64,000 nucleotides of DNA, from positions 160,001 through 224,000 of the IMG/VR virus record IMGVR_UViG_3300010163_000002; one strand, 5' to 3'. The position numbers were made by a program, and so were the translations under genes. Under the pieces are notes generated by a model. That model saw only the letters and a list, made by a program, of their open reading frames with translations. It was not told where the DNA came from and did not search any database. Position 1 is the stretch's first letter; each line of letters begins with the position of its first letter. Origin of the DNA: a virus (taxonomy: Duplodnaviria > Caudoviricetes). Positions 7,687 through 41,000 of the stretch are shown in pieces.

Positions 7687-8121
7687 ATGGAAAATGTAAA
7701 TTCTGATCTTTTAATGATGATCGTGGGAGTTATTATTGCAGCGGCTGCCGCAGTAGTAGGGCGATATGTAATCCCCAAGATTCCTAAAGACAAAGTTACA
7801 GAAGCAACTAATACTGTAAACATGGTTCTCGAATATGCTAGCAGCTTTTGCGCTTATGCTAAGCAGTTCATGCAGACTTCTACCGGTGAGGAGAAGATGG
7901 AATACGTTGTAGAGATGGTTACCGATGTCTGTGTCGCAAATGGAATTGACATCGATGAGAAACAATTGAGAGCTATTTGTCAGAGGGCCTATAATATTAT
8001 GAAAGCTGAATTGGCCAAAACAGAAACGCCGGTAGTTGGACTGCTTGATATTGCAGAACCTATTAAAGAATTTCCGCCGGTAGAAACTCAGACAGAGCCT
8101 GATACCAATGAACACGAATAA
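7687..8121 (+). CDS. LL-H-family phage holin
   Basis: One N-terminal TM helix followed by GEEKMEYV..IDIDEKQLRAICQRAYNIMK, typical of LL-H holins; promoter motif AACA-gttagg-TAA at 7643-7654. Confidence 0.65.
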   Translation: MENVNSDLLMMIVGVIIAAAAAVVGRYVIPKIPKDKVTEATNTVNMVLEYASSFCAYAKQFMQTSTGEEKMEYVVEMVTDVCVANGIDIDEKQLRAICQRAYNIMKAELAKTETPVVGLLDIAEPIKEFPPVETQTEPDTNEHE

Positions 8122-10564: not shown

Positions 10565-11158
10565 GTGCATTGGAATAATGGCGAATTTCATAAACATCTT
10601 ACTGTGTATAATACACTGTTTATGACAGAACATAAGCATTACGGTATTAGAGGCTCAGAAACCTCCACAATATTTGGAGATGGTATTGTAGATACCGAAA
10701 TGTATGGAAATAAGATTAAGATAAAAAGTACTAATGGAGATATAGATATTGTATCTCCAAAAGATGTGAATGTAAGTGCGATAACTAATGCTATTACATG
10801 TAAAGATTTCAAAGTCGATGCAAATAATGGCGCTAGTATTAAAGCTAAAAATACTGTTGTTATTTCTTCTGACGGTACAGCTAATATTTATGCAGATAAA
10901 AAGCTTGAAATTATATCTAATACGGATACGATACGAATTGAAGCAAGTAAAGATGTTGGTATTAAATCTGTAAATGGTAATGCTGCTATCAATGCAAAAA
11001 ATAATGTTAGCATTACAAGCGGAAATAATATTGATCTTAATTGTACAAATTTAAATCTTAAACCATCAAGTAGATGTACTTTAAGTTCAGCAATGTATGG
11101 AACTTCTTTACCGGGAAGCGGAGTGCAAGGGCAAGTATTCTTTAAGCTTATCTCATGA
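10565..11158 (+). CDS. beta-helix repeat spike/fibre protein (gp5-C-like)
   Basis: 8-residue repeats (IKAKNTVV/ISSDGTAN/IYADKKLE) and a C-terminal YGTSLPGSGVQGQVFFKL motif; GTG start with RBS GGAGGTG. Confidence 0.55.
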   Translation: MHWNNGEFHKHLTVYNTLFMTEHKHYGIRGSETSTIFGDGIVDTEMYGNKIKIKSTNGDIDIVSPKDVNVSAITNAITCKDFKVDANNGASIKAKNTVVISSDGTANIYADKKLEIISNTDTIRIEASKDVGIKSVNGNAAINAKNNVSITSGNNIDLNCTNLNLKPSSRCTLSSAMYGTSLPGSGVQGQVFFKLIS

Positions 11159-22498: not shown

Positions 22499-23587
22499 AT
22501 GTTGAAAGGTATAGACGTAAGTACGTGGAATGGCAAGATTAATTGGGCTAGCATGAAAAGTAAAATTAATTTTGCAATGATCAGATTGGGATATGTTAAG
22601 GGTACTAAGAAAATCGATGATAGAGCTTTGTATAACATGTCTGAATGCGACCGTTTAGGAATTCCTTACGGATTGTATTTATATAGTTATGCATTGAATG
22701 AATCCCAGGTAATAATTGAAGCTAACCACGCAATTGATGTAGCTAAAAAGGGTAATCCTGTTCTTGGTATTTATTTTGATATGGAGGATGCTGATGGATA
22801 TAAAGCAAAGAATAATATGAATCCATACAATAATGGAGCCAAGCTTGCAGGATTCTGTAAGACGTTTATAAGAATTGTTAAAAATGCCGGATATGAATCT
22901 GGAGTTTATGCAAATACAGATTACTTGAATAATGTAATTGGTAAAACTGGATTTGAACATATCTGGGTAGCATCATGGAAAGCAAATAATGGCCCTCAGG
23001 ATTGTCCTAAGGGATATAATGCAGAAATTTGGCAGTATACAGATAATGCTACCATTGATGGCAAGAGATTTGACTGCAATTATTATATCAATGAAAGTAG
23101 ATTCAAAACCCTTACGACTAAAAAAGAATCAGATAAGGAATCTGTTAAAGAAGAAGCCGTTACCAAACCATCAAAACCTGCAACTACAACAGTTCTTAAA
23201 CATAAGGTAGGAGAAACAGTATCATATAATAAGATTTACATTTCTGAAGACGATCCGTCTAGCGGAGCTAAGCCTTATTATAAATCCGGAAAAATTACTA
23301 AGATTTTCCCTAATAGTAAGCATCCATATCTTATTGGTGCTGGTATTGGATTCGTTGATGATAACTGCATTACAAGTGGAGCAAGTTCTAATACTACATT
23401 CAAAAAGGGAGATAAAGTAAAACTTAAAAAGGGATCTACTTGGTATAATGGTACAAAGGTCGCGAGCTTTGTATTTAATGTAACTCTATACGTAATTGGT
23501 CAGGATAGCCGTGGTGTATTGGTTAGCACTTCTAAAGGCGGAGCATGCACAGGGGTTGTAAAACCTGATAGACTTAGTAAAGTTTGA
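22499..23587 (+). CDS. GH25 muramidase endolysin with C-terminal cell-wall-binding domains
   Basis: KGIDVSTWNG, GLYLYSYA, YFDMED, IWQYTD and FDCN GH25 motifs; SH3-like C-terminal modules. Confidence 0.9.
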   Translation: MLKGIDVSTWNGKINWASMKSKINFAMIRLGYVKGTKKIDDRALYNMSECDRLGIPYGLYLYSYALNESQVIIEANHAIDVAKKGNPVLGIYFDMEDADGYKAKNNMNPYNNGAKLAGFCKTFIRIVKNAGYESGVYANTDYLNNVIGKTGFEHIWVASWKANNGPQDCPKGYNAEIWQYTDNATIDGKRFDCNYYINESRFKTLTTKKESDKESVKEEAVTKPSKPATTTVLKHKVGETVSYNKIYISEDDPSSGAKPYYKSGKITKIFPNSKHPYLIGAGIGFVDDNCITSGASSNTTFKKGDKVKLKKGSTWYNGTKVASFVFNVTLYVIGQDSRGVLVSTSKGGACTGVVKPDRLSKV

Positions 23588-23626: not shown

Positions 23627-23771
23627 TATTCTTTTCCAAAATTGGTAAAATTTTCCTTTTTACAACGTTATCAACATTATGCATTTTAGGATAACATTCT
23701 TGCCAGAAAGTTAACGAAATATTCGTTATATCTCTTTATTTGCCGTTGTTAAAGCCCATATTGCGTTATGA

Positions 23772-26177
23772 TCTGATGAGATTGCCGCCATAAACAAGAG
23801 AATTGGGAATCTGTTTTTGGGAATCGAAGACGGAGAAATTTCCAATTTAAAGGAAGCAGAGCTTGTCGATATCAGAACTCCGTTTAGAGATCTTGTTGGC
23901 GATGAGGTTGAATATACAAATGCTGGCGATGCTGTCAGAGGGCAGATCGAAGCATTATATAATATAACAAAAGGCGCTGCTGATCCAGATAAATTCTCTC
24001 ATATTATTTCTCCTGTAATGGTCATGGAAGATATCAATAGTGCCACCGGAGATAAATATGAGTCTATTATTGAAATAGACTATTCTGGGCTTGTTGCAAA
24101 AAATACTGGAGATTCTGGCATATACACTGGAGTATTTGATGAATTGCTTAGTTTGTTATCATCTAATCGTATTAGATTGAAGTTATTTAATTCTAAAGGA
24201 ATTATTGACGCTTATATTAATCATAATGGTATTACTGTTAATACATGTGATGGTATGAGCGAAAAACTTACTAGCATCAGATCACTCCTTGTAGAATCAG
24301 TCCATAAGATCTATATTCAGATTGGTATTGCCGGAGCTAATTCTGCTGGAAATTCTGATGGTAAAGTTTTTGCTCTTGTTGATATTGCTGATACAGGAGA
24401 AACAATTAAATCTTTTGAAGCTAATGGAGTTAATATAAAGATTATTCCTCATAGCGAAGATCATGCAATATATACTCCTAGTTCTTATGATAGAGAAACT
24501 ACAGTGAGCTGTTCAAAACCTGTAGTACAGATAGATACTGATAATATAGATTCATATATTGAAACTCCATATGATTGGGCTAATGTAACACCAAAAGCCA
24601 ATCAGTGGGCCACAATATTTTCTATTGTTTCAAAGTCTACGGCTGTAGGAAGCGATCCGAGGACAGTTATCGGTTCATTGAAGCATAGATTGTATTTGAA
24701 ATATAAAGAAGCAATGTGCGTTGCTGACCTTATAGTGTATAAAGAGGCAGATACTTTTAAACAGAAGATTTCTATTATACGTAAAGATGCTCTGTTCTCT
24801 CAGTATATAACAGATATCAGATTTGGATGGTGTATGCAGGACGATACTTCATGTATAGTTGTTCAGGCATTATGTAAAGACTCTTCTGTAGAAGCCGAAT
24901 CTTTATATGTAGCGGCGGATTATCTTTCCAACACTAACGTTACATATGATTTTTCATCTGAATTGACAATAGATGAAACTTATCCGGTATATTCTTCTAC
25001 GATCACAAGTGCTGCTGTAGAAGAAGTAACCTCTGCAAACATTGCAGAGTATATTCCTGATATTCCTGTACCCGAGCAGTTAAGAGAATATGTTGTTACT
25101 ACAAATGGTTCATATACTGTAAATCAAAATACTAAAAATATTCCATTAGTAGAAGTTGTTGATAGTGTATCAACAAATAATTCCAAATTGGATACTATAC
25201 TCGGAGAATTTCGTAGTAGATTTAATTTAAATAATACTACTGAGATTATACTTAAAAAGAGCGGAAGCAGTGTTCAATCATCAATTATTAACAATGAGAG
25301 TGCATTACCGTATAATAATCTGAGTTATAATGTGTATTCAGATGGAACTAATAGAATTGGTATTATTTATTTGGAACTTCCTAAAGCTGTAGCAACAAAT
25401 ACTATTTATAGCATTTCGTTTGTTACAGATGTGACAAGTGGAGGAAAAACTCTTAAACAATTAGAGGCTGAAGGGATTAAGTTCAATATAATTGGAAAAG
25501 ACTCCACGTCTCAGACTAAATATAATAATTATATTTTAGCGTCCACAGCGGGCAGTATCAGCAATACAAAAATCTTTAGCATAGATTTAAGCACACTGAT
25601 CTATACTGTTAAGAATACCACGTTTGATGAGCATACTAGCGCCCTTCAGGATCAGATTACGGCGTTAGCTGCAAGAAAAACTGCATTCATAGCCAGTGTA
25701 GATCTTGTTATTCCAACAACAGGTTGGGTGGCTGATACCGATACGAATGAGGTATATGCTCTTTGTGTAGATATGGCTTCAGAAATAATCAAAGAAGACA
25801 TGATTCCTATATTAACAATACACCCATCTGGTGATGAGATTGCTAGAGAGTGTGATATGAGTACTGCAGCAAGAACTATTGATGGAGCTCTAAGAGTTTA
25901 TGCGCAAAAAGCTCCCGCTGAAAATATTAATTGTAGTTTAACATTGCTTGCTGTTGGAGGATCTACTGGGGGGAATGGTGAAGGCGGAACCTATGTATTA
26001 CCAACTGCAACTGCGACACGGCTTGGTGGAGTAAAAATTGGAGATGGAATAGATGCAAATAGTGATGGAACTATATCTGTTGACAGTAATGCTGTAGCAG
26101 AAAAAGTAATAGCATCTCCAGAAGAAGTTAAAGCGATGTTGGAAGAAGTTCATAAAGATGAAACTGTTACAAGTTGA
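23772..26177 (+). CDS. tail-fibre protein, apparently lacking its 5' end
   Basis: Frame opens after TGA at 23769-23771 (SDEIAAINKRIGNL…EAELVDIR…YTNAGDAVRGQI); no RBS or promoter motif upstream; C-terminal IPTTGW…LRVYA…YVLPTATATRLGGVKIG fibre motifs. Confidence 0.65.
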   Translation, partial: SDEIAAINKRIGNLFLGIEDGEISNLKEAELVDIRTPFRDLVGDEVEYTNAGDAVRGQIEALYNITKGAADPDKFSHIISPVMVMEDINSATGDKYESIIEIDYSGLVAKNTGDSGIYTGVFDELLSLLSSNRIRLKLFNSKGIIDAYINHNGITVNTCDGMSEKLTSIRSLLVESVHKIYIQIGIAGANSAGNSDGKVFALVDIADTGETIKSFEANGVNIKIIPHSEDHAIYTPSSYDRETTVSCSKPVVQIDTDNIDSYIETPYDWANVTPKANQWATIFSIVSKSTAVGSDPRTVIGSLKHRLYLKYKEAMCVADLIVYKEADTFKQKISIIRKDALFSQYITDIRFGWCMQDDTSCIVVQALCKDSSVEAESLYVAADYLSNTNVTYDFSSELTIDETYPVYSSTITSAAVEEVTSANIAEYIPDIPVPEQLREYVVTTNGSYTVNQNTKNIPLVEVVDSVSTNNSKLDTILGEFRSRFNLNNTTEIILKKSGSSVQSSIINNESALPYNNLSYNVYSDGTNRIGIIYLELPKAVATNTIYSISFVTDVTSGGKTLKQLEAEGIKFNIIGKDSTSQTKYNNYILASTAGSISNTKIFSIDLSTLIYTVKNTTFDEHTSALQDQITALAARKTAFIASVDLVIPTTGWVADTDTNEVYALCVDMASEIIKEDMIPILTIHPSGDEIARECDMSTAARTIDGALRVYAQKAPAENINCSLTLLAVGGSTGGNGEGGTYVLPTATATRLGGVKIGDGIDANSDGTISVDSNAVAEKVIASPEEVKAMLEEVHKDETVTS

Positions 26178-26235: not shown

Positions 26236-27090
26236 ATGGCTGAAACTAGACTTACATTAGACGCGCTAAGAGAGATGGCGGAGGACGCCAAGAAGCGATA
26301 TACTACTAAAACTGAGCATAATGCGCTGAAAACACAGGTTGAAAATCTTGTAACTGCAGGCGGTGAACCGAATAAGCTGGAAGGCGTAAAGGTTAATGGA
26401 ACTGCTCTTACCATTGCAGAAAAGATGGTTGATATCTTGATTGGTCAGGGTGCAGCAAACGGCGCAGTATCTGTAAATGGTGTAGACGTAATGGTTAAAG
26501 GCCTTGCTGCACTGGCATTCAAGGCAAATGTATCTGAATCTGATCTTGATGCTGCTCTTAAGGCAGTGCTTGACGGTAAGGCCGCAGGTACAGATGTTGA
26601 GGCTCTTTCCGGTAAAGTTACAACTCTTATTGGAACAGATGCAAACAAATCTGCTCGTACTATTGCAAATGAAGAACTTGCAAAACAGCTTATTCCGGAT
26701 AACGCTAAGGAGAGTCTTGATACACTAGCTGAGATCGCAGCATGGATTCAGGATCATCCGGATGATGCTTCAGCAATGAATACTGCTATTACTTCACTGC
26801 AGAGTCTGGTTGGTAAACTGCCGGAAGGTGCAACAAGCACTACAATTGTAGACTACATTTCTGAAGCAATCACAAAGGCTGAATACAAGCATCCAACTCA
26901 CACAGCTTATACAAGTGGTCTGTATAAGGTTACTGTAGATGGCAATGGCCATGTTACAGCAGCAGATGCTGTTAAGAAAGAAGATATTACTTCTCTTGGT
27001 ATTCCTGCGCAGGATACAACCTATGAAGCAACTACACTAGCAGAAGTCAAGGCAATGCTGGCAGAAGTTTACGGTGAAACAACTGCGTAA
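26236..27090 (+). CDS. tail-fibre protein
   Basis: GGEPNKLEGVKVNG, ESLDTLAEIAAWI, YKHPTH and YKVTVDGNGHVT motifs; RBS AAGGAGG. Confidence 0.7.
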   Translation: MAETRLTLDALREMAEDAKKRYTTKTEHNALKTQVENLVTAGGEPNKLEGVKVNGTALTIAEKMVDILIGQGAANGAVSVNGVDVMVKGLAALAFKANVSESDLDAALKAVLDGKAAGTDVEALSGKVTTLIGTDANKSARTIANEELAKQLIPDNAKESLDTLAEIAAWIQDHPDDASAMNTAITSLQSLVGKLPEGATSTTIVDYISEAITKAEYKHPTHTAYTSGLYKVTVDGNGHVTAADAVKKEDITSLGIPAQDTTYEATTLAEVKAMLAEVYGETTA

Positions 27091-27152: not shown

Positions 27153-28073
27153 TTGAGCGCGAAAAAGTTAGACATACTGGAGTTATTTAAAGAATGTGCC
27201 AATAAATCCAAACAGTATTGTCTAGATAAGGTAGATGCTTTAACTCTAGCTACATATCAGAGTATTACAGAATTGACAGATCGAATTAAGGGCTATTTAC
27301 CTTTAGCCGGAGGAACAGTAGATGGAAATACGATATTTAAAAAAGTCGTATACACGCATCACGCTGTAGGAACATCTGCCACAGCAGGCTATGTAAAAAT
27401 AGCTCAAATCAAAATTACTAATAATTATCAAAATATTCCTCTTATCTTTGAAGTGGTGAACCGTAATAGCCGTTTTCCAATGCATCTATTTTTACAATTT
27501 AACTCAGAAAATAATGTTGATCCGGCCATCGGTTCATTTACATATTTTGGCGCTAATATTGGCGCATATATTATTAAATCTGCTGCAAGCACATGGGATT
27601 TATATATCAAGAAATCTGAAGCTTATGATAATATCGGTATAACAAGATATACGACAAATGCTAATTACATGGCTGGCGTTACAGTTACTTGGACAGATGT
27701 TCATGCTAATAGTTTACCATCCGGGTGCACTACGGCAACAGTTGCAGCTATGAATATTGCAGGAACATTATCAACAGCCGATAGAGATAAATTAGATAAA
27801 CTTGCTGTACCATCCGGTGTGAATATAACCGTTCCAACTACAGGATGGGATAGTGATAGTTCAGCATATCCTAAATATTATGACATTGCTGTCAGTGGAG
27901 TAACGAATAAAGATCGTGCGGATATTATAGTTGCTCAAGCTAGTTTGGATACGATTGAAAAATGTGGATTGTATTCAATTACCGAAACACTTGCTGGTAA
28001 AATCAGAATACGTGCTACTAGTGTACCAACAGCAACAATATCTATGCAGTACTGGATTACTAAAGGACAGTAA
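27153..28073 (+). CDS. tail-fibre protein
   Basis: YLPLAGGTV, GTLSTADRDKLD and VPTTGW…KIRIRA motifs; TTG start with RBS AAGGAGGTG. Confidence 0.7.
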   Translation: MSAKKLDILELFKECANKSKQYCLDKVDALTLATYQSITELTDRIKGYLPLAGGTVDGNTIFKKVVYTHHAVGTSATAGYVKIAQIKITNNYQNIPLIFEVVNRNSRFPMHLFLQFNSENNVDPAIGSFTYFGANIGAYIIKSAASTWDLYIKKSEAYDNIGITRYTTNANYMAGVTVTWTDVHANSLPSGCTTATVAAMNIAGTLSTADRDKLDKLAVPSGVNITVPTTGWDSDSSAYPKYYDIAVSGVTNKDRADIIVAQASLDTIEKCGLYSITETLAGKIRIRATSVPTATISMQYWITKGQ

Positions 28074-28087
28074 GAAAGGAGTACAAT

Positions 28088-29641
28088 ATGGCATACGGAA
28101 ATGTAAATATGCCAGGAGCTTCTGCTGCTGATGTTAAAGCGGCAGAGGCTGCGGCACAAAATGCATTAGATAAGATTGGAAATACATCAGATACTGGCGG
28201 AAGTCCTTCCGCCGGTACAGTTATGGGAAAGCTTAATAAAATTATTGAAAGCAGTAGTGGTTCGGCTAGCGCCGATACTCATCTTATTTGGTTAAATGAC
28301 TATAAAACATTTGGCGAAGATTCATATGTATTTCAGAATAAAGATATTCTGCATGAATTATATGAAGATTTCAGTCTTGTTATTCACGATATGTTAATAC
28401 GAGTTGAAGCATTAGAATATGCAGATAAAAATAATCTTGCTGGGCAGTATTTAGCTGCAGCATATGATATTTCCAATGCAGATTCTGTAAAGAATATACA
28501 AACCACAAGTGCTCTTGTACAAAATTCTGCAGCTATGAATGTGGTACGACAATCTGATGTGGATATGAAAGCATTGCTTGATTATAATGCAAGTATGAAC
28601 GCTTTAATTAAATCTACAACAGCTATGAATTCAGTTGCTGCGTCAATAATAGGTATGAAAGCTATTGCTGAGTCGGAAGAAGCTATGAATACTCTTCTTG
28701 CTTCTAATACTTTAAGTATTGTCGCTAGTTCTGCAACAGCTATGAACCAAGTTGCCGCATCCGAAGTTGCTGTAGACGCTATTGTAAAACAGAATAAAAT
28801 GGATAGTTTTTTAAATGCAACATCAATGGCCGCAATTGCTGCTTCTGAGACTGCTATGCGAATTATATCGGAATCTGAGGAGGCTATGACTGCTATTTCT
28901 CAATCTGAAGTTGCTGTAGACGCTATTGCTAAGTCTAGCGTTGCATCAAATGTTGTATGCGCTTCTAATAATTCCATGGGTATTTTATGTAACTCAGAAA
29001 TTGCTTTAAATAACTTATATACTGTTTTCTTTAATTCTACTCCAGCCATGAATTGTATTTGCAATAATGAGTCAAATATGGCAGCGGTTGCAGCATCTTA
29101 TGATTGCATGCAAGCGGCAGTTGCCGATGCAGCTATTATGCAAACTTTTAGTGAATCCGATATATGTAAAGACGCTATTACTAAATCAGCCACCGCATTA
29201 CAAATTATAGCTAAAAACGCTGATAAATGGGAATCATTAAAACCATTTATAATTGCAATAAATAATAATGGGATTAAGTATGTACAAAACGCATATGACA
29301 TACTTACCAATACAAATTATTTTACTAGAAAAACAACATCTAGAATTACTCAATATGATACTTATATGGAGAAATTACACGAATACTGTACCAGCGAGTA
29401 CGCTAATAATGGGTTTATTATAGGTCATGCAGGCGTACCTTCAAATTCACAAACTGCTACCGATCCAACTACAATTAGAATAAATAATGAAATAGTTGTA
29501 GAAAGGGCAAAAAGTTTTAATGCTGATGGATGGTTAAAAGATATTTCCAAAGGTAATGTTAATATTTTATTAATACCAACAGCTACATTTACTACTTCAA
29601 ATAATTGTTACGCGACCATAGCTGTATTTATTTCGAAATAG
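28088..29641 (+). CDS. tail-fibre tip / receptor-binding protein A with Ala/Met/Ser helical repeats
   Basis: MAYGNVNMPGAS N-terminus; GTVMGKLN motif; many short AMxxVAxS repeats; 22-bp exact repeat at 28763-28784 and 28907-28928. Confidence 0.6.
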   Translation: MAYGNVNMPGASAADVKAAEAAAQNALDKIGNTSDTGGSPSAGTVMGKLNKIIESSSGSASADTHLIWLNDYKTFGEDSYVFQNKDILHELYEDFSLVIHDMLIRVEALEYADKNNLAGQYLAAAYDISNADSVKNIQTTSALVQNSAAMNVVRQSDVDMKALLDYNASMNALIKSTTAMNSVAASIIGMKAIAESEEAMNTLLASNTLSIVASSATAMNQVAASEVAVDAIVKQNKMDSFLNATSMAAIAASETAMRIISESEEAMTAISQSEVAVDAIAKSSVASNVVCASNNSMGILCNSEIALNNLYTVFFNSTPAMNCICNNESNMAAVAASYDCMQAAVADAAIMQTFSESDICKDAITKSATALQIIAKNADKWESLKPFIIAINNNGIKYVQNAYDILTNTNYFTRKTTSRITQYDTYMEKLHEYCTSEYANNGFIIGHAGVPSNSQTATDPTTIRINNEIVVERAKSFNADGWLKDISKGNVNILLIPTATFTTSNNCYATIAVFISK

Positions 29642-29653
29642 GGGTGATTTATA

Positions 29654-30058
29654 TTGAATAGTTTATTACAACAGATTTTGTCTAATATAAAATGCGTAAA
29701 GAGCGTACAACGTGGAACAGGTAGATTATATGTTAAATTTAAATCTGACAATGTTAAAAATTACCATCCAGAGTTAAAAGTTCCATTAAACACTATCGAT
29801 CCGAATAAATGTGTTGTTATTTTGAATGGCGCGTGTTCTACATATTTTGCTAATGATATACCAGCATATAGTAGCGGAAATGCTGAAAGAATAAATCCGC
29901 CACATTTATTTTCTCTGAATAGTAATGAATTAATAATTAAAGATAGCTTTCAAGTCAACCTAACCAGCTATAGTACTTCCGATCCAAAGGATGAGGAAGG
30001 CTATTTTACATATACTGGTGCTGCTATAATTAGTTGGCAAGTAATAGAATTCTATTAA
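29654..30058 (+). CDS. small tail-fibre-associated protein
   Basis: VKSVQRG…ISWQVIEFY family pattern. Confidence 0.55.
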   Translation: MNSLLQQILSNIKCVKSVQRGTGRLYVKFKSDNVKNYHPELKVPLNTIDPNKCVVILNGACSTYFANDIPAYSSGNAERINPPHLFSLNSNELIIKDSFQVNLTSYSTSDPKDEEGYFTYTGAAIISWQVIEFY

Positions 30059-30072
30059 TAGGGGGTGTTTAA

Positions 30073-30381
30073 ATGTATAGATATGCTCAAATTATTCCTG
30101 GCAATGGAGCTGTAGTAGGAGACAGCCATTTAAGTGGGCCGGTAAATCATCCAAATATGATTCCAATTCCGGAAAATTTTGATCTTACAAATAAGAGATA
30201 CGTTAATGGAGAGTGGCAGGTACACATTCCTCCGGAACCAGAGCCTGTTGAACCTGAACCGACAGAGCAGGATCTTATTAATGCGGAAATACTGTTAAAG
30301 CAGGCTAAGATTATAAGTACTCAGAATGAGACTAACGATACATTGAAACAGATTTTAGCAAATCAGCAGACAAAGGAGTGA
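30073..30381 (+). CDS. tail-fibre assembly/chaperone-like protein
   Basis: MYRYAQI…NKRYVNGEW…PEPEP…EPTEQDLINAEILL; precedes an XkdX-like gene. Confidence 0.55.
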   Translation: MYRYAQIIPGNGAVVGDSHLSGPVNHPNMIPIPENFDLTNKRYVNGEWQVHIPPEPEPVEPEPTEQDLINAEILLKQAKIISTQNETNDTLKQILANQQTKE

Positions 30382-30390
30382 TAATAAGAT

Positions 30391-30534
30391 ATGAGTAAGA
30401 AGATACTTGATATCATAAAGAATTATTACAAATTAAAGATTTATAAGAATGAAGACGTAGCAGCGTTTGTTAAATCAAACGATATTACTCCAGAAGAATA
30501 CAAAGAAATTACTGGAGAAGAATACGTAAAATAA
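30391..30534 (+). CDS. xkdX: XkdX-family small phage protein (not in ORF track)
   Basis: 47 aa MSKKILDIIKNYYKLKIYKNEDVAAFVKSNDITPEEYKEITGEEYVK, with the ITxEEYKEITGEEY signature. Confidence 0.8.
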   Translation: MSKKILDIIKNYYKLKIYKNEDVAAFVKSNDITPEEYKEITGEEYVK

Positions 30535-30556
30535 GAGGTAAAGGAGGTTAAGTAGG

Positions 30557-31855
30557 ATGGCATATGGAATTGTAAATGGTCCTGCAGGAGCATCTAGATC
30601 ATCTGGTGTTTCTGGATCTGGAATAAGTATTGTGCCATTTCAAACTGGCGGATTAACATATAACAGCAAAGAACAATCCCCTGTATGGAGTAATTATGAT
30701 ACCGAAAAGCTTACACTTGGTGGAGTGACTAAGAGTACTAATGCCGGTACATATATTGCTACATTCACTCCTAAGGAAGGTTATACATGGATGGACGGAA
30801 CCACTGGAGCCAAAGAGGCTCCGTGGACCATCGCTAAAGCACCAGGAAATTTGACAGCAGGAAGAACAGATATGATTTTTGATGTTTTTAATTTATCAGA
30901 AACTATAAATATTATATGTGATGGGGATGGAGCCATAAGTGTTAAGGTTATAAATGAAGATATTGCTACAGTTGAACTATTTGGTACAGAATTGACAATA
31001 ACTGCTATAAAGAAGGGTTATACAGGTATTATTTTAAGATCGATGGAAGACGATAATCATACTGTTTCTGAATTTAAAGTAATACACGTGCATTGCGATA
31101 TTCCAAGTAGCGTATTAGAAGAAAATGATATTAAATATATTGTAGATGCGGCAAAATCAGGAACGGCCAAAAATTTCTGGTCTGTGGGCGATACTATTCC
31201 TATACAGTTAGAGTATGGCTACGATGTTGGTTTAGGCGCACATCCGATTATATATGCGTATATAATTGGTTTTAATCATAATCCAGATATTGAAGGAAAT
31301 AATACAATACATTTTCAATTAGGCAAAACTGAAGATGGTACTGATATAGCCATTACAACTACACACTATGGTAGTGGTAGCAGTTCTAGCTCTGGAACTT
31401 TCCATATGATTTTGCAAGGTAGCAATGCAGGGGGGTGGGAAGGAACTAGCTTGAGAAAAAATGATTTAAATAAAACATTTTTTAGCGCATTTCCAACCGA
31501 ATGGCAAAATGCTATGAAAAATTGTCCTAAATATACCAATAATATAGGACAAAAATCTTCATCCGTTTCAGTTACCGAAGATAAATTATGGCTATTATCT
31601 GAATTTGAAGTTTTTGGAGAAATAACTAGATCAACTGAACTAGAACAAAATTTCCAAAAACAATATTCATATTATGCTAATGGTAATAGTAAAATAAAAT
31701 ACAGAAGTAAATCATTAGATACTACTGCTATTTGGTGGTTACGTTCTCCTGCTTTTGCAAGTAGCGGTTTTTGCTGCGTTTTAAATGATGGTTTGCCTGG
31801 CGTAGCACAACAGTACATGGCATATGGATTATCCGCGTGTTTTGCAGTAGGTTAA
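30557..31855 (+). CDS. receptor-binding protein B with Ig-like repeats and DUF6273/C-type-lectin-like C-terminus
   Basis: MAYGIVNGPAGAS N-terminus; LTYN..EQSPVW..NAGTY Ig-like repeat; WSVGD, IIGFNH, DKLWLLSEFEVFG, WWLRSP and GLSACFAV motifs. Confidence 0.75.
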   Translation: MAYGIVNGPAGASRSSGVSGSGISIVPFQTGGLTYNSKEQSPVWSNYDTEKLTLGGVTKSTNAGTYIATFTPKEGYTWMDGTTGAKEAPWTIAKAPGNLTAGRTDMIFDVFNLSETINIICDGDGAISVKVINEDIATVELFGTELTITAIKKGYTGIILRSMEDDNHTVSEFKVIHVHCDIPSSVLEENDIKYIVDAAKSGTAKNFWSVGDTIPIQLEYGYDVGLGAHPIIYAYIIGFNHNPDIEGNNTIHFQLGKTEDGTDIAITTTHYGSGSSSSSGTFHMILQGSNAGGWEGTSLRKNDLNKTFFSAFPTEWQNAMKNCPKYTNNIGQKSSSVSVTEDKLWLLSEFEVFGEITRSTELEQNFQKQYSYYANGNSKIKYRSKSLDTTAIWWLRSPAFASSGFCCVLNDGLPGVAQQYMAYGLSACFAVG

Positions 31856-31870
31856 GAGGAGGGATATAAT

Positions 31871-32278
31871 ATGAACTACATAGTTCATCATAGATTTAAA
31901 GATAAAGGGGCTTGCGGTAAATATTTTAATCTTCCGTACGGAACAAAACTTATTACGGTAGGAGAATTTATTGCAACTACAGATAAGAAAATAATCTGTT
32001 TTCCAACAAGTGAAAACGGTCGTAAATATTTTGCAATCAATGAGGATGGTAAAGGATTAGAGCGCGGGGCTCTGACTTACGCTATTGCGTATCAGCAGAG
32101 AAATGCTGGAAACGGCTTCAGATTTTCAGATGATGAAGCTAAACTAATAAAGGAAAATTATTCTCATTTTCTTAGACAAGATGCTGATGTAATTCTGTTT
32201 AACGACAGTTTCTTCGAAGCTGATGTTAAAGAATTGCAGGCTTTAGCAGATGCTCTTAATATAAAAATTAAGCAATAA
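31871..32278 (+). CDS. conserved hypothetical protein of Clostridial phage tail-tip/DGR loci
   Basis: MNYIVHHRFK..GACG..NLPYGT…SENG..YFA.NEDG.GLERG.LT family pattern, recognised from memory only. Confidence 0.5.
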   Translation: MNYIVHHRFKDKGACGKYFNLPYGTKLITVGEFIATTDKKIICFPTSENGRKYFAINEDGKGLERGALTYAIAYQQRNAGNGFRFSDDEAKLIKENYSHFLRQDADVILFNDSFFEADVKELQALADALNIKIKQ

Positions 32279-32288
32279 TAAAAAAATA

Positions 32289-32361
32289 CAGCCCCATATA
32301 CATTTATTTAAAGCAGCGAGGTTTAATATAAAGCGAAATAATAAATATATATGGGAGGCTG
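32289..32361. promoter_or_regulatory. imperfect inverted repeat covering the recombinase RBS
   Basis: CAGCC-CCATATACATTTATT (32289-32308) pairs with AATAAATATATATGG-GA-GGCTG (32340-32361), with one mismatch and a 2-nt bulge. Confidence 0.55.
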
Positions 32362-32367
32362 AATTTT

Positions 32368-33387
32368 ATGTACGAAAATTTTAAAGCTGAATTTACAGCA
32401 AATTTGAATAATTTGTGTTTTGATCTTGATAGCAATCAGATAGATAGAGTATTATTATCCATGGATAATACTGCAAAGAATTATGATATTTACGAAAAGC
32501 CAGAATCAGAGCTGGAAGTAATGGCCAGAACCAATGGTATCCCTAAATTGGTTTACACGTACTTAGCATGTAAAGGTGCAGAAGGTTTATCAAAGGATAC
32601 TATTTACGGTTATAAAATCTTATTGGAGTTGTTCTTCAAAGATGTACCAAAGAATCCAGATCAGGTTAACGCAAATGATATAAGAGTATTCTTATTCAAT
32701 TACCAAGCCCGTACTGGAATATCTAATAGAACATTAGATAAGTATAGGGAATATGTAATGAGATTCTTTACATGGTGCCATGAGAATGGTGAAATTCCTA
32801 TAAATATTTCTCGTCAGGTTAAACCAATTCATTATGAGACACCACAGAGACAGGCGTTAACCCCATATGAATTGGAAGAGCTTAGATTGGCATGCCATTC
32901 AAGAAGAGATAAAGCCATTATAGAGTTTTTATACTCTACAGCATGTCGAGTATCAGAATTAACTAAAGTTAAGTTTACTGATATTGACTGGAATAACAAT
33001 ACTGTTCATATTATTGGTAAGGGAAGAAAACATCGTATTTCATTCTTAAATCCAAGAGCAAGAATTACTCTTGAACAGTACATCAAATATGAGCGTATGG
33101 GAGATTCTGAATATGTATTCGTATCTCAGAAAGCCCCATACGATCATCTTTCAAAAGAAGCAATAGAGAAAGTAGTACGAACAATTGCCGTTAAAGCTGA
33201 AGGAATCCATAAACATATAACTCCTCATGTTTTGAGACATACTACAGCAACGATAGGATTGCATAACGGAATGTCTATAAATGAATTATCAACTCTTCTT
33301 GGTCATTCTAATATAGAAACTACAATGATTTATGCTAAAACATCTCTTGATGCTGTACAGTCTGCTCATAGTAAATACATTATCTAA
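32368..33387 (+). CDS. XerC/D-like tyrosine recombinase
   Basis: N-terminal SAM-like domain; catalytic R (STACRVSEL), K (GKGRK), HxxR (HVLRH), H (LGHS) and Y (TTMIY) all present. Confidence 0.92.
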   Translation: MYENFKAEFTANLNNLCFDLDSNQIDRVLLSMDNTAKNYDIYEKPESELEVMARTNGIPKLVYTYLACKGAEGLSKDTIYGYKILLELFFKDVPKNPDQVNANDIRVFLFNYQARTGISNRTLDKYREYVMRFFTWCHENGEIPINISRQVKPIHYETPQRQALTPYELEELRLACHSRRDKAIIEFLYSTACRVSELTKVKFTDIDWNNNTVHIIGKGRKHRISFLNPRARITLEQYIKYERMGDSEYVFVSQKAPYDHLSKEAIEKVVRTIAVKAEGIHKHITPHVLRHTTATIGLHNGMSINELSTLLGHSNIETTMIYAKTSLDAVQSAHSKYII

Positions 33388-33479
33388 TTAATGCCATAAA
33401 GAATCAGACATTAATGTAAATTCAGTGATAGTGCTGAATTAACTCAAAAAATAATGTTTTATAGAGGAGGTAACTACAA

Positions 33480-34355
33480 ATGGCAATTAAGAAAGTATTG
33501 CTTACCAAAAAGCTGAACAACACTATTTACGACATCTTCCCGAAGACATCTGCTGATGTTGTAACGTACGGCGACTCTACTGTTGCTGCGGCTCTTGCTG
33601 CATTTGCTACAGATCTTAACAATGTATACAGCAAAACAGATGCGGATGCAAAGACCAAGGCTGCTTGCGATGCTCTGTATAATAAAATCATGGGTATTAC
33701 AGAGGAAGATGGCGCTACAGTAGATCAGGCATACGATACTCTTAAGGAAGTTGCTGCATGGATCGATGAGCATGGTGATGTTGCTGCTGCATTCACTACT
33801 GATATTACAGCTCTTAAGACTGCTGTTGGCGAGGCTCCGGCTGAGGGTAAACCTGGTTCTGGTCTGTTGAAGGCTATGGCTGAGGTAACAGCTAAAGCAG
33901 ATACTAATGCAACAGATATCGAGGCTCTTGAACAGGCAGTAACGGATTTGCAGACTGCTGTTGGAAATGCAAGTGCTGGTCTTGTAAAGACTGTTGCTGA
34001 TCATACTACAGATATTACAGCTCTTAAGACTGCTGTTGGTGAAGAGCCGAATGCCGCTGCTGGTAAGGCTGGTTCTGGTATTCTTAAGAGAGTTGCTGAC
34101 CTTGAAGCCGCTGGAGCAACTAAGGTTGAGAAATCTGATACCAATGGTAACATCAAGGTTAACGGTGTTGAGGTTGAGGTATACAAGCTTCCGTCTACTC
34201 TTGATGCTGCAATTATTAAGGAGAGCGAGGATCGTAAGTTCGTTACTGCGGATCAGCTTGGTATTATCAATAACGCTGCTGCGATCAAAGTTGTTGCCGA
34301 CCAGAGCGCTGTAGATAATGAGAGAGACCTGTTCATGGTTGAGATTACTGCCTAA
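33480..34355 (+). CDS. coiled-coil fibre/decoration structural protein
   Basis: IFPKTSADVV, AYDTLKEVAAWI and KVEKSDTNGNIKVNG motifs; 29-bp exact internal repeat (33801-33829 and 34011-34039); promoter motif at 33407-33418. Confidence 0.6.
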   Translation: MAIKKVLLTKKLNNTIYDIFPKTSADVVTYGDSTVAAALAAFATDLNNVYSKTDADAKTKAACDALYNKIMGITEEDGATVDQAYDTLKEVAAWIDEHGDVAAAFTTDITALKTAVGEAPAEGKPGSGLLKAMAEVTAKADTNATDIEALEQAVTDLQTAVGNASAGLVKTVADHTTDITALKTAVGEEPNAAAGKAGSGILKRVADLEAAGATKVEKSDTNGNIKVNGVEVEVYKLPSTLDAAIIKESEDRKFVTADQLGIINNAAAIKVVADQSAVDNERDLFMVEITA

Positions 34356-34390
34356 TCCGGTCTACCACGAAATGATGTAAATAAATTATA

Positions 34391-34416
34391 GATGGGTGGA
34401 GCAAAATCCGCCCATC
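34391..34416. terminator. intergenic hairpin
   Basis: GATGGGTGGA-gcaaaa-TCCGCCCATC (one G-U pair). Confidence 0.6.
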
Positions 34417-34445
34417 GACTAATTAAAGATTGGAAGGTAGGATAT

Positions 34446-34691
34446 ATGGCAGTAAAAAAGATTGAATTAACAAAGAAAGTAGGTTCTAACAAACACAGTT
34501 ATTACCCGAGGTCAAGCGCTGACGTAATTGTATATGACGAAGTGCTTAATGTTAAGGATATTCTTGATGCTGTCATCGATTCCGTTGAACAAGTCGAAAA
34601 TCGTTTACAGGGTAGAAGTGTCTACATGAAAGACAGCACTGGAAAAATAGTAACTGATGATGCAGGAACTGGGTTGGTAGAGATTCTATAA
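34446..34691 (+). CDS. small structural protein, paralog of the 33480 N-terminus
   Basis: MAVKKIELTKK…YPRSSADVIVY versus MAIKKVLLTKK…FPKTSADVVTY. Confidence 0.6.
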   Translation: MAVKKIELTKKVGSNKHSYYPRSSADVIVYDEVLNVKDILDAVIDSVEQVENRLQGRSVYMKDSTGKIVTDDAGTGLVEIL

Positions 34692-34715
34692 ATCATGTAT
34701 AAACAGATAAATTAT

Positions 34716-34742
34716 ATCCGGAAGGGAATATCCCTTCCGGAT
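34716..34742. terminator. intergenic hairpin
   Basis: ATCCGGAAGGGA-ata-TCCCTTCCGGAT. Confidence 0.75.
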
Positions 34743-34826
34743 GTTCTTATCCATTTTAAGGCAACCTACATAAAGGTAATTATGTATTAATACATAATAA
34801 AATTTTTAAGAAGGAGGACTAAAATT

Positions 34827-35894
34827 ATGATTAGTAATTGTGGTCATGACGAAAATGGCAGATACCATGGTGGAGTTGCAGGTGATCAGACTGGTACAGA
34901 GTGGCAAATCAGATCTTGGTATAACAGACCGTGGAATTGTGTTCTCAGACATCCGGATGCTAATGTAAGAGCTGCCATTTGCAAACTTGCTAAAGATGCT
35001 GCCAACAATAATCATATTGGATACGATCAGTATCAGCGTACTACATTCTGGACTCAGCTTCAGGCTGCTGGCTATGATGCTTCCAAGATTAAGGTAAACT
35101 GTGAGACTGACTGTTCTGCTGGCGTTGCTGCAATTGTAAAGGCTGTAGGATATAAGCTTGATATTACTGCGCTTAAGAATGTAAGTAAAGATATCTATAC
35201 CGGTAATCAGAGACAGGCGCTTCAGGCTGCTGGATTTATGGTATTGACAGAATCCAAATATCTTACATCTGATGCGTATCTGCTTGAGGGGGATATTCTG
35301 CTTAATACAGCAGCACATACGGCTATTAATGTTAGCAACGGCTCTAAGTCGGGAGCAGGATCTTCTAGCTCCGGTGGTTCGTCTGCTGGTAAACCGGCAT
35401 CTTCCGGCACAAGCCTTAGTAAAGTAGTTAAATGGAAGGGTATTGTTAATGCATCTTCCCTTGCTGTTCGTACATGGGCCGGCACTGAGAATGCTAAACT
35501 CAGGGATCTTAAATACGGAACCGAAATTGGTGTATGCGATACTGTAGAAGATAAAGACGGCGATGTATGGTATTATATATTAGAGGGCGGTAAATACGGA
35601 TTCGTATCTGCAGATTATGTAGTTAAGAAGACTGCTACGTCAAGCGTTGGTACTCCGGTAAACACATCTGGCACTCTTAATAAAACATGCAAATGGAAAG
35701 GCAAAGTTACAGCATCTTCCCTTGCTGTTCGTACATGGGCCGGCACTGAGAATAAGAAACTTAGGGATCTTGTCAAAGGGACCGAAGTTGAAGTATGCGA
35801 TGCTATCAAGGCAACTGACGGCTCTACATGGTATTATATCAAAGAGAGCGGAAAGTACGGATTTGTGCATTCTAAATACGTTACGGAAGCATAA
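34827..35894 (+). CDS. endolysin: NlpC/P60-like Cys-His amidase/peptidase plus two SH3b domains
   Basis: GDQTG.EW, GYDQ, DCSA, GDILL and HTAI motifs; two SH3b repeats sharing a 42-bp exact repeat (35451-35492 and 35712-35753); promoter motif at 34767-34778. Confidence 0.85.
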   Translation: MISNCGHDENGRYHGGVAGDQTGTEWQIRSWYNRPWNCVLRHPDANVRAAICKLAKDAANNNHIGYDQYQRTTFWTQLQAAGYDASKIKVNCETDCSAGVAAIVKAVGYKLDITALKNVSKDIYTGNQRQALQAAGFMVLTESKYLTSDAYLLEGDILLNTAAHTAINVSNGSKSGAGSSSSGGSSAGKPASSGTSLSKVVKWKGIVNASSLAVRTWAGTENAKLRDLKYGTEIGVCDTVEDKDGDVWYYILEGGKYGFVSADYVVKKTATSSVGTPVNTSGTLNKTCKWKGKVTASSLAVRTWAGTENKKLRDLVKGTEVEVCDAIKATDGSTWYYIKESGKYGFVHSKYVTEA

Positions 35895-38020: not shown

Positions 38021-41000
38021 TTATTGATTTTTCATATCTTCATCATATATTTCATGAAGAGTTGGCCATTTAACTCCCATGATATCACATACTTTACGCC
38101 ATAGTTCAATCATAAGTTTATTTAATGCTCCTACCATTATAGGAGAACAAATCATACGACCGTCTATAGCAGAACAAGAGTTAACAGCATCTATTGGTTC
38201 ATTTGGTCTAAAGTCAGTATATGGCGCATCTTCATCATCATACTGACTCATTAATACATTCTTATTAGCATTAAGGTTAACAATCTTATCACCAACACTA
38301 AGCTTATCATGATATTCCATATAAATTTCAATCTTTACTCCATCTACATTTTTAAGTTTACCAATTGGAGGTAGCTTATCGGCTTCAGATAATTGTACAT
38401 CATCTGAATTAATGCATGAGTTAGCTACCTTTTTAAGTCTATTTACATCTCTTTCATATGAAGTAACAATCTTTCTAAGACTTTCACTCATATTTTCATC
38501 TACATCGCATGTGCGATATACTTTAATATCTGAAATTCTTCCCGTTACTTTAGATTTTATTACGTTACGGCCTATCTCTGTTATATCCCCATCTTCTGTA
38601 TTAAGATTCTTAAGAAGATTATTAGCATCCTTATCATCAAATGCGTTCTGGAATATCAGTATAGGCTCTCCTTCTACTACTTTCTGTCCTTTTTTAGCAA
38701 TGAATAGTACATTAGTTGATGCGTTTAATGTAACATCTTTCATTACTACAATATTAGATGCCATTGCTTCTGACAACCATTCAGAACAAATTCCTGAATC
38801 TTCATAGCCATCTTCAGTAGTCATAATAGCAACCTTGGTAAGACATCCTAAATTGTATGCGATTTGTCCAGATCCAACTCTGCCTGAGAAGGATTTTTTG
38901 TCATATGCTAAAATTTGCCCTGCTTTTACAGAGCTACCAACCTTAAGGTCGGTCTTTAATTGTAGAGTGATATAAAATCCTCCATCAGAATTCTTCATAC
39001 TCTGCTCATCAAGATTTACGTATTCTTTAGTGTTATCATTGTATGATATAATCATATACTTATCAGTGATTTCTGTAACTTTACCTGACTTTTTGGCCTT
39101 ATGGCAAAACATATCGGATGTTAAATACGGCATTGCTGCATCGGCTCCTGTAGTTACAAGAAGCGGAGTGCCATACTCGATAGGCGTTGAATGCTTTGAC
39201 GTTTGTACGAACGTCATGTCATTTCTGAATGGGTCGTCAGATGTTACACAGTATGGAGATAATGCTTCTGTCATGCAGAATGTATTGGTTACACTAACAT
39301 CTTTAAGATCTGATTTCTTAAATAATCCTCTACCGCCTTCAATATTTGGGTTAATAGTTGTTTGCCTGTTTACACCTACAGTGGATGCAAAACCAGTGGC
39401 CTGGGCAATGATATTTACCATACTATCATCGTACCCACGCTTATCAATCTTATATGCTCTTTCACTATTCATACCTGTTACACCTTTAGTGGAAATTGTA
39501 TTCTTAGCTTCAATTTCCCATAAAGGTTGGAATACAGATAAATCTGAAGTATTATTCTGGGCAAGAATTAAATCAATTACAGCAGACTGTTTCATACTCA
39601 TTGGGACATTTCTTCCATGCTTATTCTGCAAAGCATAACTCTTATAAGAATCAGAAAGTGCTCTATAAAACTGGGCTGCTATAACCTCATTAGTTCTATA
39701 CCGATTTGTACTTAAATCTTTATGAATAGTGTGCTTATTATCTACAAGAAGATTAGATGAATAAACCAATGCTTCATGATAATCTTCTGGTAAATCATAC
39801 ATTTTACAAACCTCTACAGTTACAGGATCAAACATAAGATCTTTGAAGTTATCAAGACCATCTGATTTAATCCTTCCTCCAAAGTTATCTAAAATATCAA
39901 CCCATGTCATCTTTGAGTTAATATCTTTAATCGAATAATTTTCCAATCCGCAATCTTTCAATCCATTCATTAGCATTAATGAATCATACGTAATTGCATA
40001 ATGGATATAACAATCATTCAATTTAATAGTATCATATCCTGGATCGGACTTTCTTTTTTCTGTAATATCATAATTGATTCCAGCAAGATCCATTGCTTTT
40101 GTAAGGCCAATGTCATGAGCAAGAATTACAATTACAGGGATATCAGTATTAAGAATTGATGCCCTAGAGTATGTAGATTTTTTGGATGGTTTCTGATCAT
40201 ATACAAGATTTATAAACTCTTGATCTTCAATCAGAGAAATAATAAACTGCCCCATTGTAATATTTCCGTTATTATAAGTATAATAACTTACATTACCACT
40301 ATTGGATACTGCAACTGGAATTCCCTTTTTTGGATCTACTCCATCTATTGCTCTAATTTCATCTTGATTGAAGTATATGGTTACATTATCTTTAAGATAT
40401 TCTGAATAGCATTCAATTTTAGAATATGAAGATGCCAAATCTACATAGTCTATCGGAAGCTCATATTTCTTACAAATTTTACTATTATCACCAGTAGTAA
40501 TTTTTACTTTCTTTCCAGTATATTTTGGAATTGCTTTCATAAGCATATCTGTATATGGATTAGTTTTACCCTTAGAGGTATAATAAGTTTCAATGAAAAT
40601 CTTATTGTAGAAGGAACAAATCTGGACTGTATCAGGATCTGTTTTCGATATAGGAATAAGAGGCATCTCAATGGAGAATACTTTTTCATTACCACGTAAT
40701 CTCATGAATCTATTTGATCTAAATTTAGGAATATCGAATCTAAGAGTAAATCTCTTACCATCGTATCCTTCACACTTTACTGTGTAAGTATATACGTAAT
40801 CCTCTGCGGTAGAAGTATCTTCTTTTTGAATATCAAGAATACTTACAGGGAATTCTTTATCTGTTGATGATAATGAATTAAGACACTTTACAATATCTGC
40901 ATCAAGATCGTATTCTTTTTCAAAGTTTACTGCTTTAAGATGTTTCCATTCGTCATTAATAGTTTTAATTGGCAATGATGTTTCTGGTAATTCTTTTGGC

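Follow-up and report, generated by a model that had tools for sequence, protein, structure and literature searches.

A jumbo phage genome of 248,905 bp (IMG/VR virus record IMGVR_UViG_3300010163_000002) carries two fibre genes with a common 21-nucleotide start, followed by a gene for a Xer-like tyrosine recombinase. All three lie in the 64,000-nucleotide stretch analysed here (the window; bases 160001-224000 of the record), to which positions refer unless the genome is named. The best overall explanation of the locus, and one that we consider probable, is that the genes at 28088 and 30557 encode two receptor-binding proteins (RBPs) with a shared N-terminal adaptor that docks onto the product of the gene at 27153. 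Ordinary mosaic recombination would have assembled the pair, and the recombinase would make no use of the repeated start. The start encodes a peptide beginning with MAYG, and the module is named accordingly.

The MAYG adaptor and its predicted docking platform

The first copy of the 21-nucleotide start occupies positions 28088-28108 (codons MAYGNVN) and the second 30557-30577 (codons MAYGIVN), both on the plus strand. The sequence ATGGCATAYGGAAWTGTAAAT occurs exactly twice in the window when up to 3 mismatches are allowed, and no third copy was found there. The copies are identical at 19/21 positions. The chance expectation for such a 21-mer is 0.01 matches, and two matches were obtained in 0/100 shuffles. 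The DNA 3' of the shared 21 nucleotides is unrelated between the two genes. The open reading frames (ORFs), their identity and the divergence beyond it had been noted in a preliminary description of this DNA and are confirmed. No other real gene of the 248,905-bp genome starts with MAYG. The start of 28088 is also 19/21 identical to that of a gene in an unrelated phage (L038), which is the same as its identity to 30557. Given the shared residues and the codon usage of the genome, at least 4 of 5 identical codons are expected with P = 0.15. Because of these two results, the DNA repeat is taken to be a by-product of a conserved peptide. It exceeds what random DNA would produce, not what is produced by conserved residues and codon bias. 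A 7-bp dyad (TGGCATA...TATGCCA, 28089-28114) is found at the first copy only and was treated as chance.

The 30557 protein has 3139 homologues, and 73 of the 119 listed (its own entry excluded) have a MAYG-type start. In its commonest form the start reads MAYGxVNVPG and leads into a short helix. A profile was made from 51 distinct N-termini, all taken from phages other than this one. It matches residues 1-32 of the 28088 protein (E 2.8e-8) and also the 30557 protein (E 2.5e-3), and no others among the 1904 open frames of the genome. The module heads DUF6273 bodies, the 28088 body and a third type of body in L038, so that the profile matches place one N-terminal module before unrelated distal domains, as in a shared adaptor. 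Homologues of the 28088 body (HLIWLNDYKTFGE onward) carry other N-termini, MSDWAG or MNEPIF, and for this reason 28088 is interpreted as a mosaic. On the sequences compared, MAYGxVN(x)PG with its short helix is a widespread and exchangeable N-terminal adaptor of phage fibre proteins.

The first gene (28088-29641, plus strand) encodes RBP A, a protein of 517 aa that begins MAYGNVNMPGAS and matches the tail fibre family phrog_7809. Its MAYG module spans residues 1 to ~64 and is joined to a body from a different family. This body, from residue 65, shows 47% identity with the last tail gene of a small phage (L009), in which the N-terminus differs. Three small plus-strand genes follow within 29654-30534. 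They encode 134 aa, 102 aa and a 47-aa XkdX protein (30391-30534, PF09693 E 1.8e-15). In L009 and L010 the homologues of the 28088 body are followed by genes of ~160 aa, ~70 aa and ~50 aa and then by a holin. No sequence match was found between the small genes downstream of 28088 and these counterparts; the layout alone is common to them. The second gene (30557-31855, plus strand) encodes RBP B, a protein of 432 aa that begins MAYGIVNGPAGAS. It has a short MAYG peptide, Ig-like repeats and a C-terminal, C-type-lectin-like DUF6273 domain (PF19789 E 3.9e-15; phrog_37900 E 2.6e-99). It is followed by an accessory gene of 135 aa (31871-32278, plus strand, phrog_29409) that travels with DUF6273 fibre genes and whose product is 57-58% identical to L006_13873 and L048_12218. 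The accessory genes attributed to each fibre gene at the outset (29654, 30073 and XkdX at 30391; 31871) all exist. Both fibre genes have their own Shine-Dalgarno sequence. The only terminator-like site found on the plus strand from 27566 to 34724 is a weak one inside 30557. The separate ribosome-binding sites, the common strand and the lack of a terminator between the genes indicate that the two proteins are probably made together.

DUF6273 has been reported as a C-lectin receptor-binding domain, and receptor-binding proteins of this kind, the tentaclins and their relatives, are targets of diversity-generating retroelements (DGRs) (PMC10743442). The 30557 protein is similar to these in its DUF6273 end, which terminates in a DGR-target-like WWLRSP motif. 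In the small prophages L006 (L006:11671-13901), L037 and L048 a 156-aa gene, a reverse transcriptase and a homologue of 31871 come after the MAYG-DUF6273 gene, in that order. The adjacent reverse transcriptase suggests that the ancestral context of the second cassette was a DGR; in this phage the reverse transcriptase is gone from the cassette. Unlike in the tentaclins, the DUF6273 domain of 30557 is not N-terminal. It is C-terminal, after the Ig-like repeats. The genome does contain DGR variable and template repeats (genome 136945-137031 and 137986-138072), ~22 kb before the start of the window. These are 87 nt long and 84% identical, and the differences fall at template adenines. The gene at 30557 was considered as a remote target of this DGR and rejected, since the template pairs with 136945-137031 only and nothing in the 3' end of 30557 matches it.

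The gene immediately upstream of the pair (27153-28073, plus strand) encodes a fibre protein of 306 aa (phrog_23587, phrog_13589). Its C-terminal domain (~200-306) is the predicted docking platform of the MAYG module. In L006, L008, L037, L038, L047 and L048 a homologue of this domain is encoded directly before a MAYG gene. L007 is a seventh small-phage MAYG locus, counted by the gene layout that it has in common with L006; its upstream gene was not compared. The order in the seven loci is a fibre gene similar to the C-terminus of 23817, a 26236-like gene, a gene with the 27153 C-terminal domain, and a single MAYG gene. The MAYG genes behind 27153-like genes have at least two different bodies. 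Each of the seven small-phage loci has one MAYG gene per 27153-like gene, versus two in this phage.

The complex of 27153 (residues 195-306, three chains) and 28088 (residues 1-64, three chains) was modelled in three runs alongside three controls. The score was 0.77 in each run, and the best control reached 0.19. At that mark the calibration recovers 58/80 solved complexes and 2/110 mismatched pairs, which is only a rough guide for a job of this kind. At least 97% of the contacts agree between the runs, and the partner pLDDT (predicted local distance difference test) is at least 76. The modelled contacts in 28088 are residues 1-10 and 12-14, the stretch in common with 30557. Those in 27153 are residues 252-280, 286, 299 and 305, and include columns that are invariant among the 27153 homologues. 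According to the model, it is most likely the first ~14 residues that attach the MAYG adaptor to the C-terminal domain of the 27153 protein. The initial proposal of two fibre tips on one shaft, attached by the shared peptide, gains support from the family-wide module, the gene order in the seven small-phage loci and this model. It had been suggested that both N-terminal peptides be modelled with 27153; the run was made for 28088, with the outcome given above.

Taken together, 28088 and 30557 would be two different receptor-binding proteins that carry the same N-terminal adaptor, and with it both would dock onto the product of the gene immediately upstream, at its C-terminal domain. The two proteins would compete for or share the docking sites, and virions with two specificities may result. 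The second slot would have been created when the MAYG module was grafted, by ordinary mosaic recombination, onto the last tail gene of another type of phage together with its three small downstream genes. The recombinase most likely arrived with the fibre-lysis island in which all of these genes lie.

The recombinase and the MAYG repeats

The recombinase gene (32368-33387, plus strand) encodes 339 aa and matches PF00589 (E 9e-36), PF13495 (E 1.6e-5) and phrog_1, which is annotated as 'integrase'. The protein aligns with XerA (5hxy) at E 8e-27, with all catalytic residues aligned, and also with XerD. The catalytic set comprises R (STACRVSEL), K (GKGRKHR), HxxR (HVLRHT), H (LLGHSN) and Y (MIYAK). 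The arrangement is that of a Xer-like tyrosine recombinase, in which R-K-HxxR-H/W-Y in the PF00589 domain is preceded by a SAM-like core-binding domain. The description of the enzyme as Xer-like and catalytically complete is thus borne out. IntI4 matches only residues 259-324 (E 9e-10 over 66 residues), versus E 8e-27 for the Xer proteins. The homologues of the recombinase have weak matches to MrpR_C_cat. A possible hairpin at 32290-32372 (plus strand; minimum free energy -16.8 kcal/mol, z -1.9, a weak signal) would hide the ribosome-binding site of the gene by pairing its Shine-Dalgarno sequence with an upstream CCCCATATA stretch. Compensatory changes are seen in 5/13 pairs among this phage, L034 and L032. 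The hairpin may provide translational control of the recombinase.

The preliminary description took the MAYG starts for direct-repeat sites at which the recombinase captures, excises or reorders fibre cassettes in the manner of an integron. The layout that invites this reading is real. Two co-oriented cassettes with a common 21-nucleotide start stand directly upstream of an intact recombinase, and the fibre region that varies relative to L034 stops exactly at the spacer upstream of the recombinase. As in an integron, a tyrosine recombinase lies beside an array of co-oriented, exchangeable genes. However, conserved residues and codon bias account for the identity of the repeats, and the start in the unrelated phage L038 is equally identical. 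The two copies differ at 2/21 positions, and tyrosine recombinases generally require identical crossover regions. There is no third site beside the recombinase. Unlike in integrons, neither an attI site nor attC-like or otherwise folded sites at the cassette boundaries were found in the window, and the recombinase is co-oriented with the cassettes, not divergent as an IntI-type integrase would be. Nor were inverted repeats stronger than chance found at gene boundaries in the window. The best structural relatives of the enzyme are Xer proteins, whose match is far above that of IntI4.

The same conclusion is suggested by the separate distribution of the two elements. The recombinase is absent from the fetched flanks of the small-phage MAYG loci (0/7), and none of the recombinase loci of other phages contains the MAYG pattern. 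The nearest orthologues of the recombinase (80% identical in L034 and 78% in L032/L033) follow non-MAYG fibre genes. A junction of 27153 and MAYG diagnostic of a deletion variant had no match in JGI metagenome contigs, a result of little weight. On this evidence the recombinase does not appear to act on the MAYG repeats, and the integron-like reading, with identity that follows from the peptide, no further sites and no pairing of MAYG with the recombinase elsewhere, is very improbable.

Recombinase loci in related phages and rival explanations

The recombinase clade was examined at 13 loci in 12 phages, of which G007 contributes two. At all 13 the recombinase is beside receptor-binding genes. 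At most of them it comes directly after the last receptor-binding gene, on the same strand and before the lysis genes. In the window it follows the MAYG cassettes and 31871 and precedes two genes, A and B, and an ELLD lysin. In L034 (80% identical) it lies after an S74 fibre and a glycosyltransferase and again before A, B and an ELLD lysin. In L032/L033 (78%) it comes after a 718-aa Metallophos protein and before A- and B-like genes, and in G001 (62%) after that phage's own A and B genes. The L041 copy (56%) is between two divergent giant fibre genes. The L039 copy (51%) follows tail genes of 571 and 410 aa and precedes a lysin. The L040 copy (49%) is among receptor-binding genes. Those of L035 and L036 (48%) come after GDSL-type proteins and before small genes and a lysin, and the two copies of G007 (44%) each after an SGNH-type protein. 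In Terrisporobacter phage TPELB_ph1 (34%) the gene is found after the last tail gene, and in Clostridium phage phiCp-D (33%) after a polysaccharide deacetylase, in both cases before the holin and lysin. Published accounts of TPELB_ph1 and phiCp-D do not treat the recombinase. Several of these phages carry a separate system of integration or partition: TPELB_ph1 has a second annotated integrase, L040 a large serine recombinase, phiCp-D ParM and L039 ParAB.

This distribution could mean that the recombinase is dedicated to the receptor-binding locus. Acting at short sites in a single genome or across co-infecting ones, it would invert or swap fibre modules, and the sites in this phage would be cryptic or lost. 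We regard this as possible but doubtful. The constant place of the gene across small prophages, phage-plasmids and jumbo phages speaks for it, as do the carriers with a separate serine integrase or Par genes. L035 and L036 have identical recombinase and lysis genes and different fibre genes, with the homology beginning 47 nt upstream of the recombinase; between the window and L034 it begins at 32274, again just upstream of the gene. There is also a precedent. The Rin shufflon of Bifidobacterium prophages has a predicted armless XerD-like invertase and a number of variable gene segments with 11-bp rix sites between them, and genomes have been seen to differ by inversions (Mavrich et al. 2018, PMC6109161). 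As in Rin, an armless XerD-like recombinase lies at the distal end of the receptor-binding locus, apart from any lysogeny integrase, and the proteins combine a constant N-terminal part with variable parts; the place beside the locus holds here and at the 12 other loci. Unlike in Rin, the genes of this phage are complete and co-oriented, there is no rix-like repeat, and the shared part is only 7-13 codons. The Gin, Cin and Min systems of Mu, P1 and p15B are similar in that a recombinase gene adjoins alternative tail-fibre genes and governs host range. They differ in having serine invertases, inverted sites and opposed fibre segments, none of which is present in the window: its ORFs between 22499 and 35894 all read from the plus strand, and neither inverted nor repeated sites were found. 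Even in phages without any site-specific enzyme, module boundaries commonly fall at gene ends.

Inverted repeats near the recombinase do occur elsewhere in the clade, and they can be read both ways. In L041 nested inverted repeats surround the recombinase between the giant fibre genes (9787-9817/11339-11369, 31 nt, 100%; 9862-9903/11020-11061, 42 nt, 93%). Either an invertible switch or a single promoter in four copies could account for them. In G007 97-nt inverted repeats (95% identical) surround a 5.8-kb segment that contains the recombinase. They belong to an element of ~95 nt that has six copies (95-98% identical; at 27.7, 34.5, 126.7, 266.9, 272.8 and 296.3 kb, and L030:4876-4972 and 10821-10917). 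Each copy stands before unrelated depolymerase-like genes and consists of a 5' hairpin and codons for M(T)YFSFDLSND, with ATA in place of ATG in one copy. Two copies form the inverted repeats around a recombinase copy, whereas three of the six are far from any recombinase. The layout in L040 resembles that of the Mu G segment: two convergent fibre genes contain an in-frame inverted repeat of 20 nt. The segment nevertheless faces the same way at each of the 7 places shown, out of 23 contigs with the same recombinase. A crossover motif derived from the L040 and L041 inverted repeats, TAGTYNRCTTTCT, has one match with 1 mismatch in the window, on the wrong strand, and 87/100 shuffles do equally well. 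It is thus at chance frequency here, and because it resembles a -35/-10 promoter and could be one, no weight was given to it. In G007 a stretch of ~95 nt from the 3' end of the recombinase gene is duplicated (L030:7006-7102 versus 7956-8046), 950 nt apart and with a 199-aa helix-turn-helix-like ORF between the copies. This duplicate may be an insertion scar.

The five jumbo relatives, found through their RNA polymerase beta gene (61-75% identity), give a patchy picture. The recombinase is absent from G003 (98% complete), G004 (96% complete), G005 and G006; G007 has two copies. A further relative, G001, has a single copy, which lies elsewhere in its genome. In G005 (L019:18698-24332) three tandem DUF6273 genes of 659, 668 and 504 aa all start with MSAI[VA]RN.GG, and no recombinase homologue is present. 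Tandem fibre genes with a shared start therefore need no recombinase. A homologue of 27153 was not found in the five jumbo relatives. It had been remarked that a phage of this type has no obvious need for an integrase at this position. The remark was fair; the gene is patchy in the clade and its lineage is always beside receptor-binding genes.

A broader form of the dedicated recombinase has also been considered. The Xer-like clade would be an unrecognised receptor-binding-locus system of Clostridia phages, found alike in jumbo phages, phage-plasmids and small prophages. It would exchange or invert entire receptor-binding modules at the lysis boundary, and the two-slot MAYG arrangement would be one of its products. 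We think this unlikely. Quite unlikely, in our view, is a role unrelated to fibres, either genome multimer resolution or circularisation (as with Cre and Xer) or integration in an unrecognised lysogenic or carrier state. The Xer-like fold with its complete active site, the weak MrpR_C_cat matches of the homologues, the phrog_1 'integrase' annotation and the carriers that are phage-plasmids with ParM or ParAB are all compatible with such a role. Absence from the near-complete G003 and G004 and doubling in G007 fit a core replication function poorly. A Robinsoniella contig has a 48%-identical homologue between tail and lysis genes and not at the prophage end, where a lysogeny integrase would lie; the integrated state is itself deduced from a 200-kb contig. 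TPELB_ph1 and L040 have another integrase. This phage has 115-bp direct terminal repeats on its 248,905-bp genome and encodes RNA polymerases of its own; genes for lysogeny were not seen in it. The constant place beside fibre genes would be left unexplained.

Several points weigh against two RBPs on one platform with an uninvolved recombinase, the explanation that we favour. The docking is predicted from a model and from gene order, not measurement, and the model covers 28088 only, as trimers, unlike the calibration set of the tool. Of the module, the 30557 protein retains only ~13 residues, with a weak profile score. Co-production of the two proteins is probable, being deduced from the signals in the DNA. 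Homology between paired loci starts exactly in the spacer upstream of the recombinase, both here and in L035/L036. The constant place beside receptor-binding genes argues for some function tied to them, and to call the recombinase a passenger here may be too dismissive.

The fibre-lysis island and the biology of host range

The region from 22.0 to 37.6 kb of the window is a variable host-recognition and lysis island of the 249-kb jumbo phage. The G+C content is ~33%. A multisubunit RNA polymerase is encoded on the minus strand at 38021-42400, with matches to phage RNA polymerase beta families (E 1e-133). In G003 the beta gene adjoins the ThyA homologue, so that the 22.0-37.6 kb block is absent there and represents an insertion relative to G003. 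In its parts the island is similar to small Clostridia phages. No close DNA relatives were found among GenBank phages, and no close relatives of the 28088 or 30557 fibre proteins were found in IMG/VR.

The left edge of the island is a GH25 endolysin (22499-23587, plus strand; PF01183 E 5.9e-22, phrog_291). It is kept in L034, where the fibre genes from the endolysin to the recombinase differ. It is followed on the same strand by a tail fibre protein of 786 aa (23817-26177; phrog_27381 tail fibre, E 4.8e-24), whose C-terminus is 41-42% identical to fibre genes of 335/337 aa in the small prophages L006 and L008. The next gene, for a fibre-associated protein of 284 aa (26236-27090, plus strand; phrog_38190), has 47% identity with L008_5593 and is syntenic with 287-aa genes in L006, L047 and L048. 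A perfect 24-nt direct repeat connects 23692-23715, upstream of the fibre gene at 23817, with another tail-fibre region (genome 130929-130952), and a 21-nt repeat at 23921-23941 matches genome 135147-135167.

Downstream of the recombinase, gene A (33480-34355, plus strand; phrog_1056) encodes a fibritin-like fibre protein and gene B (34446-34691, plus strand) a protein of 81 aa with an N-terminus of the same type. This is a second shared N-terminal module, MAIKK.L.KK..G...IYPKTSADVV.Y, which in the phage clade heads proteins of 81 to 2960 aa (window 33480-33580 and 34446-34540; L034:4690; L041:9765 on the minus strand, and 11389; L019:14428-17200). The MAIKK...YPKTSADVV module is probably another tail adaptor. 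Homologues of A adjoin the recombinase in L003, L032 and L034 and are found without it in G005. A motif, AACATTAAT.TAAAT, with a small hairpin that has compensatory changes, precedes gene A in three genomes (window 33405-33440; L034:9880-9915; L003:8700-8735) and looks like a phage promoter and start-site element. The order A-B-recombinase in G001 and recombinase-A-B here raised the idea of one small mobile unit. This was rejected because G005 has A and B without the recombinase, and because of the promoter-like motif and hairpin before A in three genomes. A 20-nt perfect palindrome (34779-34798) lies between gene B and the last gene of the plus-strand block, which encodes an endolysin-like domain and two SH3 domains (34827-35894; PF25309 E 1.3e-72, PF08239).

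The favoured arrangement of two RBPs on one platform resembles that of other phages with multiple RBPs, in which proteins with unrelated distal domains attach through a short N-terminal adaptor to one upstream tail protein and are swapped at the adaptor boundary. In Klebsiella KP32-type phages, with G7C gp66/gp63.1 and among the CBA120 tailspikes, a second RBP reportedly docks by a short conserved N-terminal peptide. The predicted pair of MAYGxVNVPG with its helix and the C-terminal domain of 27153-like proteins is a different one, in Firmicutes phages, and the two RBPs appear to use the same site and not a branched chain. The MAYG adaptor and the predicted 27153-type platform would be an undescribed pair.

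Host range is poorly understood in the phages of gut Firmicutes, few of which can be cultured. A portable pair of MAYG peptide and 27153 C-terminal domain would explain how very different receptor-binding domains can be plugged into the same tail, and would provide a rule by which host-range modules could be read from metagenomes. Carriers of the recombinase range from 36-kb prophages to 313-kb jumbo phages, several with their own integrase or partition system. Its position suggests a function tied to host recognition that is not yet described for Clostridia phages. If it is true that the recombinase moves or flips fibre modules, this would be a third route to new host range, beside DGRs and ordinary mosaic recombination.

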